23,897 nucleotides of DNA from Vulcanimicrobiaceae bacterium (GCA_046262595.1 JBHEMM010000025.1:13159-37055), one strand, 5' to 3'. Shown: positions 3,012-17,052, numbered from the stretch's first letter. Notes: a model not told the origin generated them from the sequence alone. Made by a program: numbers and translations.

Positions 3012-3871
3012 CTACCGCATGCGGCGGTAGATCGGGAAAACCTCGTCGACTTTGCGGAAGACGCCTTCATGCGGCGTTGCGTGGAGCGATTCGGCCGAGC
3101 TTAAACATAAGAATCCGAAGCGCGATAAGCTTTGCAAGAAAAGATTGTGCACGCGGTACTGCAGCGACTTGCTGAATTGCGGCAGCACGCCGCGCGAAAC
3201 AATGCAATGAAACTCGTTCAGCGAGGAGTCGGTGGCCAAGCTGTGCGTGGAGAAGATCATTTGGCGCCGGATCTCCTCGTTGAAGCACACCGTGTCTTCA
3301 TTGAGCTCGCAGTAGTCCGAAAGCGGCGCCTGGCCGCCCGAGAGGCGGTAGTCTCCGGCAAGCTCTTCGATCGAGCCCACGGCAAAGACGCCCTCGCGCG
3401 CGACGGCGAGCGCGATCTCGCTCATATCGGTCGCGTAGATCATGCACTTTTGCAGGATGCCCGCTTCGCGCAGAACGCACGCGATGGTGTAGACGTCCTC
3501 ACCGGTGGAGCACGCCGGGAACCACAGGCGCACGAACGAGTACGTGCGCAAAAACGGCACGACGCGATCGCGAAACGCCTTATAGTATTCGGGCGTTTTA
3601 AACAAACGCGCAGGTGAGAACGACATGGCAAAGATGAATTTGCGCAGCGCGTCCCGGTCGTGCAGCAGCCGCTCCTGCAGGCCGCTGATCGTCTGCACAT
3701 CCTCTGCGCGCATGCGCTCGAAGACCCGGCGTTTGAGCGGGCCCGGAGCGTATTCCCGGAAATCGTAACCGCTCCACCGCACGATCGCTTCAAGCAAAAG
3801 CGAAAGCTCGACGGCCGCGCGTTCTTCGCTGCGGTCATCGGCTTCGCTTAACAGCGGCCCCTTTTCCCGGA

Positions 3872-3887
<16 letters not shown>
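3012..3887 (-). CDS. cheR: CheR-family protein-glutamate methyltransferase homologue (degenerate motifs)
   Basis: GYDFREY...[27 protein letters not shown]. The start overlaps the kinase stop by 16 nt. Confidence 0.88.
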
Positions 3888-9604
<5,717 letters not shown>

Positions 9605-9650
9605 AAAAAGATGAAACGCTCCGTTCGGGCAAGACGTTGCCCATTCTTCA

Positions 9651-9675
9651 TTTCCATTTCGAACTTCTGCCAAAC
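9651..9675 (-). promoter_or_regulatory. Possible SigB/SigF-type promoter for the kinase operon
   Basis: The minus strand reads GTTTGG-N13-TGGAAA, against the SigB consensus GTTTaa-N12-14-GGGwAw, 46 nt upstream of ATG 9604. Confidence 0.35.
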
Positions 9676-9725
9676 ACGGGCTCGCTAGGTTTAGCAAGCT
9701 AGCCGTAATGGGGAGAAGCCCATTG

Positions 9726-11255
9726 ATGCAAGTGCGGAATAACATCGATCCGCTTGATTTGCTTGCGGAGGCGAGCCGTTTGCTGACGGCCTCTTTCGAC
9801 TTGTCCTCCACCTTGCCCAAAGTGGCCGACCTGTGCGTGCGCAATCTCGCCGACTACTGCGCGATTTTTTCGTCTTACGGGGAAGCGGGCGGGGTCACAA
9901 TGGTGGAAGCCGCGGACCAACCCGGCGTGCACATGCACGCCGCAACGCCCGAAGCGCTACCGGCCGTCTTGCGCGAGCACGGGTACGAAAGCATCGTCGC
10001 GTGCCCGATTACCGGGCGCAGCGTTAGCGGAATCTTTGCAATTGCCAACCGCTCGCCGGACGTCTTCGGCGAGGACGTCATCAAGCTCGCCAACATTCTG
10101 GCACTGCAGATCGCGAACAGCCTGCAGCAATCCGTCCTTTTCGAGCGTACGTACCGCGTTGCAGACCGGCTGCAGCGCGCGCTCCTGCCCGAGCATCTGC
10201 CGACCGTTCCGGGAGCGCGATTCCACGCGGCATACCGGCCCGCAAGCGACGAGGCGGAAGTCGGCGGAGACTGGTACGATGCGTTCTGGCTGCCCGATGG
10301 GCGCGTTGCCATCTCGATGGGGGACGTCGCCGGTCACGGTTTGAGCGCCGCGACCATCATGGGCGAAATTCGTCAGGCGATGCGCACAACCGCGGTGTTT
10401 GAACACTCGCCCGCGACTGTTCTCGAACATATCAACAATGTGATTAACCTGCGAAGCGGCATCGGCATGGTGACCGCGATCTTCGCGTACTACGAGCCGG
10501 CCAAGCGGGAACTCACGTACGCCGTCGCCGGCCATCCTGCACCGGCGCTGGCGATCGGCGGTGGGTTTTGCGGTTTTTTGCCCGGCGGCGGCATGCCCCT
10601 CGGCGTCGACGACAAAGTCCAGGCGCGGGATTGGACGATGACCTTGCCGCCGCGCAGCGGCATCGTTTTTTATACGGACGGAATGACGGAATATTCTCGC
10701 GATATCTTCGCGGGCGAGGCGATGCTGCTCCAAGCGAGCGCGCGCGCTTTTGCAGTCGACGGTGCAAACCCGGCGCTCGCGCTGCAAGAGCGCATCTTCG
10801 ATGCAAAAGTGAACCGCGACGATGCCGCAACGCTCACGCTGGCTTGCGAAGACGGCCCTATTGTTGAGACGGCCCGCTTCTCCGCCATCCCGGTCGCCGC
10901 GCCGATCGTGCGTGCGCTGCTTCAGCGCTTCTGCGAGCAGCACGGCGTCGGCGAAGTGCAGACGTTCTCGATCATTACCGCTGCCGGCGAGGCGGTTGCG
11001 AACGCCGTGGAGCATGCATACCGCGGCGACGATCAAGGCTTCTTTTACGTGCGTCCGTCCGTCGAAGGCAATCTCATCACTATCGAGATCGAAGACGGCG
11101 GACGCTGGCGTCCGTTCGCGCCGCGCGACGAACGCGGGCGCGGCATGGTACTCATGTATGAATTGATGGATCGCGTTCGCATCACCTCAACGCAGTCCGG
11201 CACGAACATCATCATGACGACGAGCCGGACGAGCGAAGAACCAGCGCCGCATTGA
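9726..11255 (+). CDS. GAF + SpoIIE/RsbU-type PP2C phosphatase + RsbW-type anti-sigma kinase fusion
   Basis: Linker [13 protein letters not shown]2C motifs VGGDWYD, GDVAGHG, YTDG, RDDA; kinase motifs [26 protein letters not shown] at 9712-9715 favours TTG 9723 or ATG 9726 over ATG 9708. Confidence 0.92.
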
Positions 11256-12459
11256 TCCCGCCGAATCCCGACGAGTTCGACAACGTCAAACGCGCGCGCG
11301 CGTGCCGCGCTTGACGCGATACGTTTAAAGCGCACTCCGGATCCAAACGCTCCAGATTCACCGCGCCCGGCACGACGCCGTCCCGCATTGCGAGCAGCGC
11401 GATCGCAATCTCCCACGCGCCGGTTGTTCCCAGCGCGTGGCCGTGCTGGCCCTTGGTCGCGCATACCGGAATCTGCGCGAGGCGCTCACCAAAAACACGT
11501 TCGTAGGCGCGCGCTTCCGCCCGATCGCCCAGCCGCGTCGACGAGCCGTGCGCGTTGAGCACTTCGACTTGATCTGCCGTCACGTGCGCATCTTCGAGCG
11601 CGCGCTGCAGAGCCGTCGCGGTTTGATCGCCGCCTTCGATGGGCGCCGACATGTGATGCGCGTCGTTGGACGTTCCGTACCCGGCTATCTCCCCGTAAAT
11701 CCGCGCGCCGCGCGTCTGTGCGTCCGCGAAACGCTCGAGCAGCAGCATTCCGGCGCCTTCGGCCATGACGAAGCCGTCGCGCTTTTCGTCGAACGGACGG
11801 CTTGCGTGCGCGGGGTCGCTGTTGTTCGTCGACATCGCGCGCGCAACCACGAACGCGCCGTACGTGAGCTGCGCGAGCGGGGCCTCGACGCCTCCCGCAA
11901 GCGCCATGCGCAGTTCACCGTGGCGGATAGCGCGCGCCGCATCGCCGATCGCCATCGCGCCCGAAGCACACGAGTTTCCGTTCCCGGTCGAATGCCCGGT
12001 GGCGCCGAACTCGATGGCGATGTTGCTGGCGGCGGCGCCGCCGAAAACGGATATCGTCACCAGCGGGCTCACGCCGCGTAAACCCTCACGATGGAAAATT
12101 GCCATTTGGTCTTCAGCGATAGAGATGCCGCCGAGCGCCGACCCGGTAAAGACGCCGGTTTCGCCGGCACGTTCGCCGAGCTGCTCGAGCTGCGCGTCGG
12201 TCAGCGCGAGGTGGGCGGCGCAGACCGCCATTTGGGAGAAACGATCCGTCCACTGTATCCTGCGCTTGGTCATAAATGCAGCGGGCTCGAAGTCGTCGAC
12301 CTGCGCTGCAATGCGCGAGCGGAATGCGCCGGCGTTGAAACGCGTGATCGTGCTCACTGCGACGTGCCCCTCAAGCAGATTGCGCCACATCGTTTCGACG
12401 CCGTTGCCGAGCGGCGAGATGATGCCGATGCCCGTGACGGCGACCCGGTGCGGGCTCAC
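11212..12459 (-). CDS. Beta-ketoacyl synthase (FabF/KS-alpha-like), stand-alone
   Basis: RVAVTGIGIISPLG, catalytic Cys in NSCASG, SRPFD.KRDGFVMAEGAG, NAHGSST, KGQHGHALG, SNSSGFGG. GTG start at 12459 overlaps the upstream TGA. The 3' end overlaps the convergent phosphatase gene by 44 nt. Confidence 0.92.
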   Translation of the reverse strand: MSPHRVAVTGIGIISPLGNGVETMWRNLLEGHVAVSTITRFNAGAFRSRIAAQVDDFEPAAFMTKRRIQWTDRFSQMAVCAAHLALTDAQLEQLGERAGETGVFTGSALGGISIAEDQMAIFHREGLRGVSPLVTISVFGGAAASNIAIEFGATGHSTGNGNSCASGAMAIGDAARAIRHGELRMALAGGVEAPLAQLTYGAFVVARAMSTNNSDPAHASRPFDEKRDGFVMAEGAGMLLLERFADAQTRGARIYGEIAGYGTSNDAHHMSAPIEGGDQTATALQRALEDAHVTADQVEVLNAHGSSTRLGDRAEARAYERVFGERLAQIPVCATKGQHGHALGTTGAWEIAIALLAMRDGVVPGAVNLERLDPECALNVSRQARHARARLTLSNSSGFGGINAALVLRSSGSSS

Positions 12460-12875
12460 GGCTGTGCCTCCGCAAGCGCTTTCACACAGCGCAGCGTGCG
12501 CGTTGCAATCGGATCGATAAACCAGCGGCCGATGACGGGAGCGAGCGGCGAGCGCAGTTCGTGCTCGATCGTGACGCGCGTTCCGCGGGGATGCGGATCG
12601 AAACGCCACCACACGAGCATGCCGCGCGTCCAGCCGCGCACGTGGCGGAACGTGATCTGCGGAATCTCCGGATCGTTCACTTGCTCGGCGCGCCAGCGCA
12701 CCGGAATCATGCCCCGCCGCGCCGCCATTTCAACGACGCGCGTGTGCCCCGCTTCGGAAAGGACGCGTACGAAGCGGTAGTGCGGCAACATTTGCGGCCA
12801 ATGCTCCGTCGCGCTCGCGAGATCGTAGATGCGGCGGCCGGGCGCTTCGATCACGATCTCGTTGCGCATGTTCAC
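12456..12875 (-). CDS. SRPBCC/START-fold polyketide cyclase/aromatase-like protein
   Basis: NEIVIEAP..RIYDLA....HWPQMLPHY, WRAEQ, ITFRH, GM...WRF, GTRVTIEH. Start is GTG 12875 (GTGA overlap) or ATG 12869. Confidence 0.85.
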   Translation of the reverse strand: MNMRNEIVIEAPGRRIYDLASATEHWPQMLPHYRFVRVLSEAGHTRVVEMAARRGMIPVRWRAEQVNDPEIPQITFRHVRGWTRGMLVWWRFDPHPRGTRVTIEHELRSPLAPVIGRWFIDPIATRTLRCVKALAEAQP

Positions 12876-13966
12876 GCGCTCACCGCGTCCAAAAGCGGCG
12901 CGAACAACGGCGCGCACGGCGCGAGAAACGGCATCCGCAGGGAGAGTGAGACGATCGAGGAGTAACGTTTGCGCCTCGCTATCTCACGGTATAGGGCGCG
13001 CCCGTACGCTGCGAACGATGCCGCTTCGCTTGCGCCGGCGCGCACGGCGAGCAATGCCTTGCAGGCCAGCCGCGCGCCATATAACGCCAGATACACGCCT
13101 TGTCCGGTGAAGGGATCCACAAACTCGGCCGCGTCGCCTGCCAGCAGCACGCCCGGCGCATGGAACGCGGTGGCGCGGTACGCAAGCGGGCCGATCGCAA
13201 TGCGGTTTCCTTGCAGCGTCGCAAACGAAAGATCGATCGTTCCCGCGCTTAATTCCGCCGCACGGCCGCGCACAAACGCTTGCATATTCTCGCGATGGGC
13301 GCGCACGTCGCGTTCGTAAACGATGAGCATCACGTTTGCCGTTTGCGCGTCAAATGGATTCACCGCGAAGTACGTACGGCCGTCGACGAACATGTGCACG
13401 TACCGGTCCAACGCCCGCAATCCGCCGTAGTGGCCGCCCAGCGCAAAACGCGCTTCGCCCTTCGGCGGCGCGTGCAGGCGCAGTTCTTTGGCCAAAAGCG
13501 AATGCGCGCCGTCCGCCGCAACGAGCGCGCCGGCCGTAAGCGTTGCATCGCCGCCCTCCGGCAAACGGATGCGCAATCGTACGTTTCCTTCCGAGGCAGT
13601 AACGTTTTCCGCGCGCGCTCGGATGGCGCGCACCCCCGCCGCGATGGCGGCGCGGCGCAAAACGTCATCCAGCGTTTGCCTTGGAAGCGACCAGCCGGGC
13701 GTTCGAAAGGGCAACTCGGCCCTCGCACCGCGCGTAAAAACGCGCACGCCCTTTAACGCGTACGCGTGCGGTTGCAATACCGGCGTTAAACCAAGCGCGC
13801 CGAGCATTCGCACTGTGGTGCCGCTCAAATATTCCCCGCATGGCTTCGTGCGTGGAAACTCGGAGCGGTCAATGAGCGTTACGTCGAATCCTTCGCGTGC
13901 AAGCAGCAGCGCGGCCGCCGAGCCGGCCGGCCCCGCACCCGCTACGAGGACGCTATTTTTTAAAAT
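12872..13966 (-). CDS. FAD-dependent oxidoreductase, geranylgeranyl-reductase/flavin-monooxygenase family (start not canonical; coordinate set at an in-frame ATT)
   Basis: The frame is open from 13975. Upstream of the track start (TTG 13828) it reads ILKNSVLVAGAGPAGSAAALLLAREGFDVTLIDRSEFPRTKPCGEYLS. Later motifs are RQTLD, VAADGAHS and LAGDAAEFVDPFTGQG. Confidence 0.9.
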   Translation of the reverse strand: MLKNSVLVAGAGPAGSAAALLLAREGFDVTLIDRSEFPRTKPCGEYLSGTTVRMLGALGLTPVLQPHAYALKGVRVFTRGARAELPFRTPGWSLPRQTLDDVLRRAAIAAGVRAIRARAENVTASEGNVRLRIRLPEGGDATLTAGALVAADGAHSLLAKELRLHAPPKGEARFALGGHYGGLRALDRYVHMFVDGRTYFAVNPFDAQTANVMLIVYERDVRAHRENMQAFVRGRAAELSAGTIDLSFATLQGNRIAIGPLAYRATAFHAPGVLLAGDAAEFVDPFTGQGVYLALYGARLACKALLAVRAGASEAASFAAYGRALYREIARRKRYSSIVSLSLRMPFLAPCAPLFAPLLDAVSA

Positions 13967-14284: not shown

Positions 14285-14539
14285 TTAGCCGACGATCCGC
14301 CGCCCCGCGCCCATCCGCACGAGCGCGATGAGCGCGAAACCTCCGCAGGCCGCCGCAGCGATACTCCACCCGTCGAACGCATCGAAGGCCGGCCGGTGCA
14401 CCGCTAGCTTATAGACAAATGCGGCCAGTCCGCCGCCGAGCAGGCCGACCAGCGTATCGGAACCCAGGCCCGGAGAATCGGGAAGCACGTACCGCGCGGC
14501 CAATCCCGCGAGCACGCCGGCGAGCGCTTCGATTGCCAT
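14285..14539 (-). CDS. GlsB/YeaQ/YmgE (transglycosylase-associated) family small membrane protein
   Basis: 84 aa, three hydrophobic segments; [13 protein letters not shown]...[15 protein letters not shown]...[18 protein letters not shown] fits the family pattern. Confidence 0.72.
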
Positions 14540-14610
14540 ACCGGCTTCTTTCCCGCATGCGCAAGCGATCTCGCGAAACTAAACCGCGGCGCAGGGGGTA
14601 ACGAAGGCGT

Positions 14611-16521
14611 ATGACCACCCTGTGCGAGTCGTGCCGGCTGCGCCCGGCCACTGTCACCGGCGAGGCGACCGGCCTGCCGCAGTATTGCGCTTCCTGCGCC
14701 GCGCGAAACCAGATGACGCGAACCGCGCTCCCGTTGATGGGTGCGGCCCTCACGGCGGCGGCGCTGGTTGCCGGCGGCGCGCTGCTCGTGCAAAAATTCG
14801 ACGTCCCACGCCGCCTGCGCAGCGGCACGCCGACGCTCGCGCAATTCTCGCGGGATCTGACGGATCTCGCGCGCAACGGCAAACTCGATCCCGTGATCGG
14901 CCGCGATACCGAAGTGGAGCGCCTGATCGCGATTCTCGCGCGGCGCAGTAAAAACAATCCCGTGCTGGTCGGCGAGCCGGGCGTAGGCAAAACGGCAATC
15001 GTGGAAGGCTTGGCGCAACGCATCGTCGCGGGCAGCGTTCCCCAGGTTCTGCGCGATAAGCGCGTGCTCGCGCTTTCGCTCGGTCCGCTCGTGGCGGGCA
15101 CCAAATACCGCGGTGAATTCGAGAGCCGCGTTAAGCGCATCTTGGATGAAGTGCGCAAGGCGGCGCGCGATGTGGTGCTTTTCATCGACGAACTGCATAC
15201 GCTGGTCGGAGCCGGCGCCGCCGAAGGTTCGCTCGATTTGAGTTCGATGATCAAGCCCGAACTCGCGCGGGGCGATCTGCAATGTATCGGCGCAACGACG
15301 TTCGACGAATACCGCAAGTACATCGAATCGGACGCGGCGCTCGAACGCCGGTTTCAACCCGTCATGGTCAACGAACCGGATATCGAGCAGACCGCGCAGA
15401 TCTTGCGCGGCTTGCGCGAGCGCTACGCGCAGCACCACAATGTAACGATTACCGATGAAGCCGTTGCGGCAGCGGCAGCGCTATCCGCGCGGTACATCGC
15501 GGATCGTTTTCTTCCCGACAAAGCGATCGATCTCATGGACGAGGCGGCGGCCTCCGTTGCGCTTGCCAATAAAGGTGCCCTGCCGCATCCGCCGGTTACC
15601 GCGGCGCATGTGGCGGGCGTCGTCACGAAATGGACGGGCATACCGCAAAGCACGCTTTCAGAGTCGCAAGCGAACAACTTGCTCGCGCTGGAACAGACGC
15701 TCGGCAAGCGCGTGATAGGGCAGCCGCAAGCCATCGCCGCGGTAAGCGAGGCAATCCGCCGCGCGCGCGCCGGCCTGCACGATCCGAATAAGCCGCTGGG
15801 CAGCTTTTTATTCATGGGTTCGAGCGGTGTCGGAAAGACGGAGCTCGCAAAAGCGCTCGCCGCATCGCTCTTCGGCACGCAGGAAGCACTGGTGCGCATC
15901 GATCTTTCGGAATTCACGGAGGCGCACACGATCTCGCGGCTGCTCGGCGCGCCGCCGGGATACCAAGGTCACGACGAGCCGGGACAATTGACCGAACCGG
16001 TGCGCCGGCGTCCGTACTGTGTGGTGCTTTTCGACGAGCTGGAAAAGGCGCATCCCGACGTCGCGGCAATTCTGCTGCAAATTCTGGACGACGGCCGGGT
16101 CACCGACGCAAAAGGCCGCACGATCGATTTCCGTCACGCGCTGATCATCATGACAACGAACGTCCCGGCCGACGAACTCAGCGATTCGTTCCGCCCGGAG
16201 TTCTTGAACCGGATCGACGAGAACGTGCACTTCAACGATCTGCGTTTGGAAGATATCGAACACATCGTCACCATTCACGTCGATGCGCTCGCCGGGCGCC
16301 TGGGCGCTCGCGACGTGCAACTGCAGCTCGATGCGCCCGCGCGCGCGTTTCTGGCGAGGGAGGCGCTCAAAGGCGGCTCCGGCGCACGCTTCGTCCAGCG
16401 CATCGTCGCGCGTCATATCAGCACGCCGCTTTCCACGGCGCTGCTGCGCGGCGAATTCAAAAACAGCGGGCGAGCCGACGTGCGTTTCGAAAACGGCGCC
16501 TTGGTTGTCCATGCCGCCTGA
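14611..16521 (+). CDS. Class 1 Clp/Hsp100 AAA+ ATPase with an atypical architecture
   Basis: AAA-1: [56 protein letters not shown]-2: [43 protein letters not shown]-terminal CESC...CASC plus a hydrophobic stretch. Confidence 0.95.
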
Positions 16522-16529
16522 GCAAGCGC

Positions 16530-16562
16530 TCTCAAATCGTTCACAGCATGGCGCTCTATGCT
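16530..16562 (+). promoter_or_regulatory. OmpR/PhoB-family tandem box plus -10 element (probable leaderless promoter)
   Basis: TCTCAA-N5-TCACAG (16530-16546, 11-bp period), then 10 nt, then TATGCT (16557-16562), then 7 nt, then ATG 16570 with no Shine-Dalgarno sequence. Confidence 0.55.
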
Positions 16563-16569
16563 GAGCGGC

Positions 16570-17052
16570 ATGAAGAAGCCATTCTTTGCTCTCGTCCTTG
16601 CGGCGGCGTTGATGCCGCTCGCAGCAGCTCCCACGCTCGCGCAAGCGCCGCCCGCGGGGCCTCCGGCTTTCCGCGCGCAGATGGAACAACTCCACGCGAC
16701 GGCAAAAACGAACGTGTTCAACGCGCTTAGCGCGGATCACCGGACGCGCGTGCAAGCGATCATCAATCAGGTGAACGCCGGAACACTCGACCGCCGCGGT
16801 GCCGCATCACAGATCGACGCATTCCTTTCGCCTTCCGAATCGCAAGCGATTCTGGCGGAAGGCAAAAAAATGCACGATGCGATGCGGCAGTACTTCGCCC
16901 AGAATCCGCCGCGGGGCGGCGAACGCATGGGCGGCCCGGGTGCACGCGGCCGACGGGGCACGCAAGCTCAGCATGAACGCACGCCGGATGCCGGACGCAT
17001 GGTGGTGATGCTCGGCGCAAACCGGCGGCAGCGGCCGCCGAGCCAGCCTTAA
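16570..17052 (+). CDS. Exported alpha-helical protein, possibly Spy/CpxP-like (LTxxQ) chaperone
   Basis: Signal peptide MKKPFFALVLAAALMPLAAAPTLA|Q; two LTxxQ-like turns (ALSADHR, FLSPSES); Gly/Arg/Pro-rich tail. Confidence 0.7.
   Translation: MKKPFFALVLAAALMPLAAAPTLAQAPPAGPPAFRAQMEQLHATAKTNVFNALSADHRTRVQAIINQVNAGTLDRRGAASQIDAFLSPSESQAILAEGKKMHDAMRQYFAQNPPRGGERMGGPGARGRRGTQAQHERTPDAGRMVVMLGANRRQRPPSQP

Follow-up and report, generated by a model that had tools for sequence, protein, structure and literature searches.

A minimal Hsp100 ATPase family with a zinc-finger N terminus and a predicted membrane-anchor helix in one class of soil bacteria

A third Hsp100 without an M-domain or a ClpP-docking loop

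We analyzed a 23,897-nucleotide stretch of DNA from a Vulcanimicrobiaceae bacterium (GCA_046262595.1, JBHEMM010000025.1:13159-37055; hereafter the window, whose coordinates are used for its features), in which an earlier note, made from the sequence alone, had singled out an unusual Hsp100/Clp ATPase gene. The open reading frame (ORF) lies where that note had placed it, at 14611-16521 on the plus strand, and encodes a class 1 Hsp100/Clp ATPase of 636 amino acids (aa) in which a Pfam scan recognized two AAA modules, AAA1 (14830-15570, +) and AAA2 (15658-16518, +). In front of AAA1 lie a Cys4 zinc-finger module (aa 5-29; 14623-14697, +) and an uncharged Ala/Leu/Gly helix (aa 38-61; 14722-14793, +) that we predict to be a membrane anchor. 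As the note had claimed, there is no Clp-N domain: Pfam found neither Clp-N nor UVR domains in the 636-aa protein, and Clp-N (PF02861) was also absent from homologues P0001 to P0088. The same genome encodes a normal ClpC with its ClpP loop, ClpB, ClpP, and DnaK. The Clp family described here is a mostly single-copy third Hsp100 paralogue, beside ClpB and ClpC, in one class of soil bacteria.

The note had described AAA1 as running directly into AAA2, with no middle domain. In our alignment, the segment between the AAA1 lid and AAA2 (15517-15639, +) is 41 aa long in the window's Clp and 36 to 41 aa in 16 family rows, without any coiled-coil or UVR M-domain, compared to 88 to 100 aa in the reference rows for ClpC, ClpE, ClpG, and ClpL and 156 to 173 aa in those for ClpB and ClpV; across 203 family homologues it spans 36 to 48 aa. 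The M-domain is indeed absent, but its loss does not by itself break with the known classes and is not new, because the corresponding join of Escherichia coli ClpA is 40 aa. The second claimed deletion concerns the ClpP-docking (IGF/LGF) insertion, whose site lies at 16147-16203 (+). The stretch between sensor-1 and the RPEF motif measures 19 aa in the window's Clp and 19 to 23 aa in family rows, against 35 to 52 aa in all 28 nonfamily rows, including ClpB, ClpK/ClpG, and ClpL. Because the segment is shorter even than in these last three, the loop was deleted outright and not merely mutated.

Is this architecture a product of chance or decay? The layout is conserved classwide, and 203 of the 208 homologues listed share it, with the short join; two of the others are ClpC, and three were not parsed. 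Between the window's Clp and two genomes of the same genus, codon changes at aa 39 to 60 were 15 synonymous to 0 nonsynonymous and 13 to 1, and the helix is thus under purifying selection. Since the layout is shared and the changes are biased toward synonymous ones, the architecture reflects neither chance nor decay, and we rejected a recent pseudogene or an assembly artifact as explanations. One family protein alone, P0033, has a long ClpB-like AAA2 loop and looks chimeric, its family-type N terminus and AAA1 being joined to a ClpB-like AAA2 through either an assembly chimera or gene conversion. P0045 also has a mosaic appearance, between two family members.

The note's statement that both rings keep their Walker A and B motifs, pore loops, Arg fingers, and sensor-2 was borne out (188 to 192 of 192). 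Among 192 family proteins of at least 590 aa, the AAA1 counts were 191 for Walker A, 192 for Walker B, 192 for the pore loop, and 188 for the Arg-finger motif, and the AAA2 counts were 190 for Walker A and 192 for sensor-2. In the window's Clp, sensor-1 of AAA1 and the pore Tyr and Arg finger of AAA2 are likewise in place. The GYQG pore loop that the note had read in AAA2 is present, although its Gln is not a family rule: Ala is the commoner residue after the pore Tyr (102 proteins, versus 71 with Gln and 19 with others, Val in 4 among them). The Walker B residue of AAA2 is Glu in 133 proteins and Asp in 39, with the pattern unmatched in 20; the change from Glu to Asp occurs in the deepest family. 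Judged by these motifs, AAA1 is intact throughout, and AAA2 is somewhat eroded in the deeper families.

The AAA1 module is 70% identical to that of the genome's own ClpC and 65 to 71% identical to those of the class's ClpB and ClpC. This closeness, together with the partial erosion of AAA2 in two families, would suit a subunit that joins ClpC or ClpB rings as a modifier and either brings them to the membrane or damps them. We regard such a role as very improbable: the pore tyrosine of each ring and the full set of AAA1 motifs persist, AAA2 is only about 50 to 57% identical to the class's ClpB and ClpC, and the papers searched gave no precedent.

Distribution, phylogeny, and comparison with known Hsp100 classes

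In a search with aa 1 to 110, 88 of the 120 proteins listed share the N terminus (E value of 1.5e-13 or better). Their source labels are mostly Ca. Eremiobacterota, Baltobacteraceae, and Vulcanimicrobiaceae, with one Rhodanobacteraceae, and a search from a deep member added the labels Ca. Eremiobacter, Velthaea, and Elarobacter. Across the class's three families, an N-terminus profile built from 39 rows matched 158 of 160, 3 of 3, and 10 of 18 genomes, nearly always in single copy (the tally includes five genomes marked unpublished). It matched 6 of 69 genomes of other classes, weakly, and the five of these six that were opened proved McsA-like, a label recognized from the sequence, and aligned via the zinc finger alone. 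Against 1.84 billion representatives, the profile gave 83 matches; those that were strong over both the zinc finger and the helix were family members or their fragments, and the remainder were mostly McsA- or ClpG-like zinc fingers or low-complexity sequence. Breadth beyond the phylum was judged from this last search and the two homologue searches. An ESM Atlas search with aa 1 to 75 returned no usable match.

Phylogeny against the known classes gave the family a clade of its own, with several candidate sister groups. The tree was built on 519 columns from both AAA modules, with 32 of 44 aligned rows (12 were dropped for computing time or long branches). The family was monophyletic (100/99) and stood apart from the ClpB clade and from ClpE plus ClpL, within an unresolved ClpC/E/G/L radiation; single-domain trees supported its monophyly at 95 and 92. 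Approximately unbiased tests on 22 rows rejected none of the sister groupings, whether with ClpE plus ClpL (P = 0.49), ClpG-like proteins (P = 0.42), or the class's ClpC (P = 0.32), and a quick tree of 22 rows placed the family beside ClpB at 84, unstarred. The NCBIfam models for ClpA, ClpB, ClpV, ClpK, and ClpG all score the window's Clp under their cutoffs (in bits, 829 against 1232 for ClpB, 693 against 993 for ClpA, and 650 to 657 against 1900 for ClpG/ClpK).

The note's inference that the protein fits no described class held: the family lacks at least one of the tested defining features of each of ClpA, ClpB, ClpC, ClpE, ClpG/ClpK, ClpI, and ClpL. Its closest matches in sequence are with ClpC (that of Bacillus, Staphylococcus, and the genome itself), which is also the best solved-structure match both by sequence and by fold, but the Clp-N repeats, UVR M-domain, and IGF loop of ClpC are all missing. 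ClpB differs by the long coiled-coil M-domain that serves DnaK (156 to 164 aa, against 41). ClpA of E. coli resembles the family in lacking an M-domain, yet has Clp-N and an IGL loop, and its AAA1 and AAA2 are only 52% and 44% identical to those of the window's Clp. ClpG/ClpK of Pseudomonas, Klebsiella, and E. coli plasmids share an N1 zinc core, two AAA modules, the absence of a ClpP motif, and likely autonomy with the family, whose zinc ligands are four Cys; they differ by an N2 (Clp-N) domain, an M-domain (97 against 41 aa), and a C-terminal extension, and ClpK lacks the hydrophobic 23-residue helix.

Papers are cited here by PMC identifier. ClpE of Enterococcus faecalis (29hb) carries, like the family, a short Cys4 zinc-binding N terminus directly on AAA1 and a hydrophobic element after the zinc core, but it has an M-domain and a VGF loop, which it needs for ClpP and for degradation with ClpP (PMC13125188), and its post-zinc stretch is not membrane-like. 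ClpL and ClpIb resemble the family as Hsp100 classes without a ClpP motif (PMC11006417, PMC10149685). Both keep an M-domain, and their N termini lack the combination of a zinc finger with an uncharged helix; the N-domain of ClpL is rich in aromatic residues and in Asn and Gln and has no zinc, unlike that of the family. ClpI, from Actinomycetota, is set apart by its own description, which gives it a ClpC-length M-domain and a Clp-N-type domain (PMC10149685), both absent here. Our literature search, mostly without subscription papers and excluding supplements, found no description of this family or of a membrane-anchored bacterial Hsp100; the supplementary family tables of the ClpE and ClpI papers, outside that search, could list such sequences. 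The family is apparently undescribed. A different stripped-down Hsp100, a 609-aa Clp ATPase with almost no N-domain, is encoded on a Ligilactobacillus plasmid (NZ_CP117984.1:422-2251, our locus L101); its N terminus is unrelated to that of the family.

A McsA/ClpE/ClpG-type zinc finger followed by a conserved hydrophobic helix

The CESC-x17-CASC motif reported earlier is present, with Cys at aa 5, 8, 26, and 29 and a spacer of 17 residues. All four Cys are present in each of the 39 rows. The spacer is a 22-residue hairpin in 95 of 169 members and is kept in that form by the deep members, so that the window's Clp carries a shortened version. Against the PDB, the N-terminus profile matched McsA (8wtb, E = 8.8e-5), ClpE (29hb, aa 2 to 39, E = 0.044), and the N1 domain of ClpK/ClpG (8p66, aa 4 to 36, E = 0.22, weak alone), and ClpG-like N termini were also among its matches. 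AlphaFold modeled aa 1 to 30 with a predicted local distance difference test score (pLDDT) of about 82; a fold search with the short N-terminal model gave nothing at E = 0.001 and only weak RING/treble-clef rows. The homology of the McsA, ClpE, and ClpG N1 zinc domains has been stated before (PMC10641755), and on these profile matches the Cys4 module is a zinc finger of that kind, which would bind zinc. McsA itself was not found in the window's genome. A McsB-type kinase domain is present in 4 of 61 genomes (G037 to G040), all in one small family, and was not found in the 37 genomes searched from the window's family, though these keep ClpC.

The note had placed a 22-residue uncharged segment at aa 39 to 60. 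Its coordinates are right (14725-14790, +), but the run free of Asp, Glu, Lys, and Arg is really 24 residues long, from aa 38 to 61, and the residues quoted after it contain a small slip, since a Gln precedes the Lys. The note's own test, whether the segment is conserved, gave a clear answer: the charge-free run after the zinc finger is 22 to 26 residues long in 157 of 166 proteins, and its Kyte-Doolittle value over 19 residues (KD19) is at least 1.6 in 165 of 166, a length and hydrophobicity of the membrane-spanning kind. Gly44 is conserved in 39 of 39 rows, Gly55 in 38, and Ala46 in 37. Compared to the best window of 24 soluble controls, the helix was above all of them in 37 of 39 genome-derived rows by Kyte-Doolittle values and in 39 of 39 by a plain sum of Hessa scale values (median +0.4 versus +4.5 or more). 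It is also more hydrophobic than the three helices of the neighboring YmgE-like protein. The matching stretches reach a KD19 of 0.76 or less in ClpE (-0.12), ClpK, ClpL, and three ClpG-like proteins, and 0.7 to 1.85 in five McsA. These data suggest that the family may be attached to the membrane. A likeness of the helix to Pfam DUF2076 stayed under the cutoff (best E = 0.0015, 7 of 39) and was taken as compositional. Behind the helix, the linker varies from 18 to 44 aa in 165 of 169 proteins; that of the window's Clp (14794-14829) is about 11 residues shorter than in most relatives, the whole protein having 636 aa against about 645 to 655.

Could the helix instead serve a soluble protein? The family might be a stand-alone disaggregase like ClpG or ClpL, in which the zinc finger and helix form a sticky arm or a six-helix collar that binds aggregates by avidity, the protein having no durable hold on the membrane. 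Such arms exist: ClpE binds aggregates with hydrophobic residues that immediately follow its zinc core, at the very position of the helix (PMC13125188), a parallel that the earlier note had not considered, and the autonomous ClpL of Listeria works via a mobile, hydrophobic, sticky N terminus (PMC11006417). The upper end of the McsA range above comes from one post-zinc segment, which also speaks for this explanation. However, arms known to bind aggregates are either aromatic or amphipathic and have much lower hydrophobicity, whereas the helix is nearly devoid of aromatic residues, uncharged over 22 to 26 residues, and of fixed length. We consider a soluble disaggregase unlikely, if well worth keeping in mind as the chief alternative.

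A conserved promoter element outlines a candidate stress regulon

A conserved element resembling promoters of extracytoplasmic function (ECF) sigma factors, GAAAC and GGGTA separated by 16 nt (14575-14600, +), ends 10 nt before the ATG of the Clp gene, and the transcript is predicted to be near-leaderless. Within the window's family, 23 of 26 loci keep the element, and none of 13 from the other two families has it; its strict form occurs in 19 of 39 loci, versus 0 or 1 in each of 18 control windows. In a position weight matrix scan that gave 61 sites in the window's genome, the Clp site ranked first, being itself within the training set. Three sites were examined in relatives, with counts that leave out one unpublished genome and come from kin that are not independent. 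The motif precedes hslV (G000:C23:5969) in 17 of 29 relatives (controls, 0 of 303), the S41 protease gene ctpA (G000:C29:20358) in 10 of 29 (6 of 297), and the gene for an M48 BepA-like protease (G000:C29:7892) in 6 of 28 (0 of 290). A variant with another last base lies before clpB (G000:C22:30355) in 17 of 24 relatives (controls, 1 of 464) under a pattern relaxed after inspection, the strict form being rare there (4 of 24; controls, 2 of 161); this related promoter before clpB favors the soluble alternative. In 21 of 22 relatives, the variant motif is also found ahead of the gene for a SigW-like ECF sigma factor (controls, 10 of 110).

The strict form was not found before dnaK, groES/EL, lon, htrA, clpP, clpX, or clpC of the window's genome, and CIRCE, CtsR, and HAIR operators, searched by consensus, occurred in 0 of 39 regions upstream of the Clp gene. 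The literature did not identify the sigma class that reads the motif. As predicted from these sites, the motif set outlines a near-leaderless ECF protein-quality regulon under one or two sigma factors. For a mostly uncultured group, this offers an initial way into its stress regulon. The SigW-like sigma gene (G000:C15:8926-about 10500), probably self-regulated and a candidate for the factor that reads the motif, has its own GAAAC-N17/18-(G/T)GT(T/C) element, and the product of the gene after it resembles, by its motifs, a zinc anti-sigma domain joined to an O6-alkylguanine transferase domain, possibly a sensor of alkylating or thiol stress.

Topology and a proposed mode of action

By analogy with Msp1, the note had envisaged a membrane-spanning segment with the Cys motif and the ATPase on opposite sides. 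Msp1 is arranged with its N terminus out and its C terminus in, an arrangement unmatched by the charges that flank the helix. The borders are sharply charged on both sides: the last residue on the N side is Arg or Lys in 162 of 169 proteins, and the C side starts with Asp or Glu in 140 of 169. With a basic N edge, an acidic C edge, and a Cys4 module of a cytoplasmic type, an orientation with the zinc finger out and the ring in is disfavored. The net charge is higher in the N flank in 138 of 169; Lys plus Arg number 2.5 versus 1.4 within 5 residues but 4.9 versus 4.7 within 25, and the window's own Clp has more on the C side. Since these residues are even over 25 positions, the flank charges do not settle the topology. 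We infer that both flanks lie inside, the arrangement that the flank data fit best.

The reverse of the Msp1-like arrangement would be a type II membrane protein, exported by Sec or Tat, with the zinc finger inside and a periplasmic AAA ring whose ClpP and DnaK docking parts were lost as their partners are absent outside. The higher net charge of the N flank is compatible with it, as is the promoter shared with periplasmic proteases, and a full RR-x-hydrophobic-hydrophobic pattern (taken as the Tat motif) occurs in 27 of 169 proteins. We find it barely credible: the periplasm has little ATP, and the near-invariant ATP-hydrolysis motifs make a ring outside implausible; a twin Arg precedes the helix in 96 of 169 and is absent in 73, including the window's Clp; and Lys plus Arg are even over the longer flanks. 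On these counts of the twin Arg and the full pattern, Tat export was rejected as a family trait.

The explanation toward which we lean, tentatively, is that the Clp family is a stress unfoldase that acts alone, its hydrophobic helix keeping it on the cytoplasmic face of the inner membrane (for an inner membrane, we assume the envelope type of the class's cells). An ECF sigma factor would induce the gene along with those for HslV and envelope proteases. The 23-residue helix would insert shallowly or in the plane of the membrane, leaving the zinc finger, the ring, and both basic flanks in the cytoplasm, and it might pack with its neighbors through a small-residue face (Gly44/Ala48/Ala-Gly51/Gly55). 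At the membrane surface, the zinc fingers would seize membrane-bound proteins that have misfolded or aggregated, in the manner of ClpG N1, and the ring, free of M-domain repression, would thread them without ClpP or DnaK and release them for refolding or to other proteases. Tethering would replace the M-domain as a brake. Action without partners is suggested because the ClpP- and DnaK-docking parts are absent familywide, as the note had proposed for this protein, even as ClpB, ClpP, DnaK, and a loop-bearing ClpC are all encoded in the window's genome. By analogy, the family looks like the natural form of a chimera in which ClpG N1, fused to an M-domain-derepressed ClpB, yields a stand-alone disaggregase (PMC8024975), with a membrane-grade helix added.

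Several observations weigh against a membrane-held unfoldase. The helix is 40% Ala and 14% Gly, marginal for insertion, and has a low-confidence pLDDT under 60 in both AlphaFold models. An unbroken helix of 23 residues would be expected of a complete membrane crossing more than of a shallow anchor, and such a crossing would leave either the zinc finger or the ATPase outside. The hydrophobic residues after the zinc core of ClpE bind aggregates in a soluble protein. Eight of the 18 genomes of the deepest family lack a profile match, and the five checked hold only ClpB- or ClpC-sized ATPases. The regulon does not point to the membrane alone, because cytoplasmic hslV, and clpB with its variant -10, are mixed with envelope genes.

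The note had gone further, to a membrane extractase. In Msp1, the AAA+ ring is reportedly tied to the membrane by an N-terminal hydrophobic segment. The TorsinA ring is likewise tied via an N-terminal hydrophobic region (PMC4999309). Msp1/ATAD1 and TorsinA are functional analogues of the predicted arrangement but single-ring, eukaryotic, and without a zinc finger, and their anchors are not known homologues of the helix. It is conceivable, though we hold it doubtful, that the family represents the first case of an Hsp100 anchored in the membrane, in effect a bacterial Msp1 with two rings, extracting damaged or mis-inserted inner-membrane proteins without a protease or chaperone partner. Equally speculative is the fuller form of that idea, in which a derepressed Clp motor, placed within an ECF regulon with HslVU and envelope proteases, acquired a new anchor helix and a zinc finger of the McsA/ClpG type.

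The characterized bacterial Hsp100 classes that we checked are all soluble and controlled by an M-domain, an adaptor, or ClpP. The family, a natural minimal motor with none of these controls and kept in nearly every genome of one family, bears on what keeps an Hsp100 from being toxic when M-domain repression is absent and on whether bacteria own a protease-free membrane extractase beside FtsH. If soluble, it would be a new class of stand-alone disaggregase next to ClpG and ClpL.

Gene neighborhood

In two families, the Clp gene lies between a ferredoxin gene (31 of 41 loci) and tlpA-ribF-truB (tlpA in 30 of 41); in the deepest family its context is wholly different, and no neighbor is kept classwide. 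In 18 of 39 loci, the gene immediately upstream, in the same orientation, is a SIMPL gene. This neighbor, together with a conservation of the helix (Gly44, Gly55, Ala46) beyond what a plain anchor would need, could indicate a dedicated remodeler of one membrane complex, comparable to ClpV or plasmodial HSP101, whose helix would span or enter the membrane and pair through its glycine face with a specific partner helix. The absence of a classwide neighbor, the different context in the deepest family, and the gene's own promoter in the window's family make such a remodeler improbable.

The divergent gene for a YeaQ/YmgE-like small membrane protein (14285-14539, -), which the note had offered as a candidate partner or substrate, is a neighbor and probably not part of the system. 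The ORF itself matches nothing in Pfam or NCBIfam, but a syntenic protein with which it shares 34% identity (E = 2e-9) scores above the cutoff for Transgly_assoc (YeaQ/YmgE type). Such a gene is found in 17 of 41 loci and is missing from all 13 that belong to the two other families. Its strand is always opposite to that of the Clp gene, the SIMPL gene often stands between them, and the shared promoter was absent in 13 of 13 located copies. With this patchy occurrence, opposite strand, and lack of the promoter, a partnership was rejected as unlikely.

A hairpin 3' of the Clp stop codon was no better than shuffles (z = -0.73). The next ORF (16558-17052, +; 164 aa) begins like a signal peptide and is unmatched in Pfam and NCBIfam; just 4 of 41 loci, including the window's, have it directly after the Clp gene. 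At 11212-13828 (-) lie fabF, a 153-aa ORF, and a flavin adenine dinucleotide (FAD) oxidoreductase gene, a block found upstream of the ferredoxin gene in 17 to 18 of 41 loci. In the deepest family, same-strand genes resembling those for superoxide dismutase, FabI, IscX, a stand-alone Lon N-domain, and Nudix proteins precede the Clp gene, and a YCII-like gene is often found 3' of it (all recognized from sequence). Farther away in the window, a hybrid histidine kinase of 1990 aa (3872-9844, -) has about ten HAMP repeats, a GAF domain, and three receiver domains, and its gene adjoins a CheR gene (3012-3887, -). Elsewhere (G000:C33:23136-23726, -), a stand-alone Clp-N domain protein resembling ClpC2 is matched by the ClpC N terminus (E = 4e-12).

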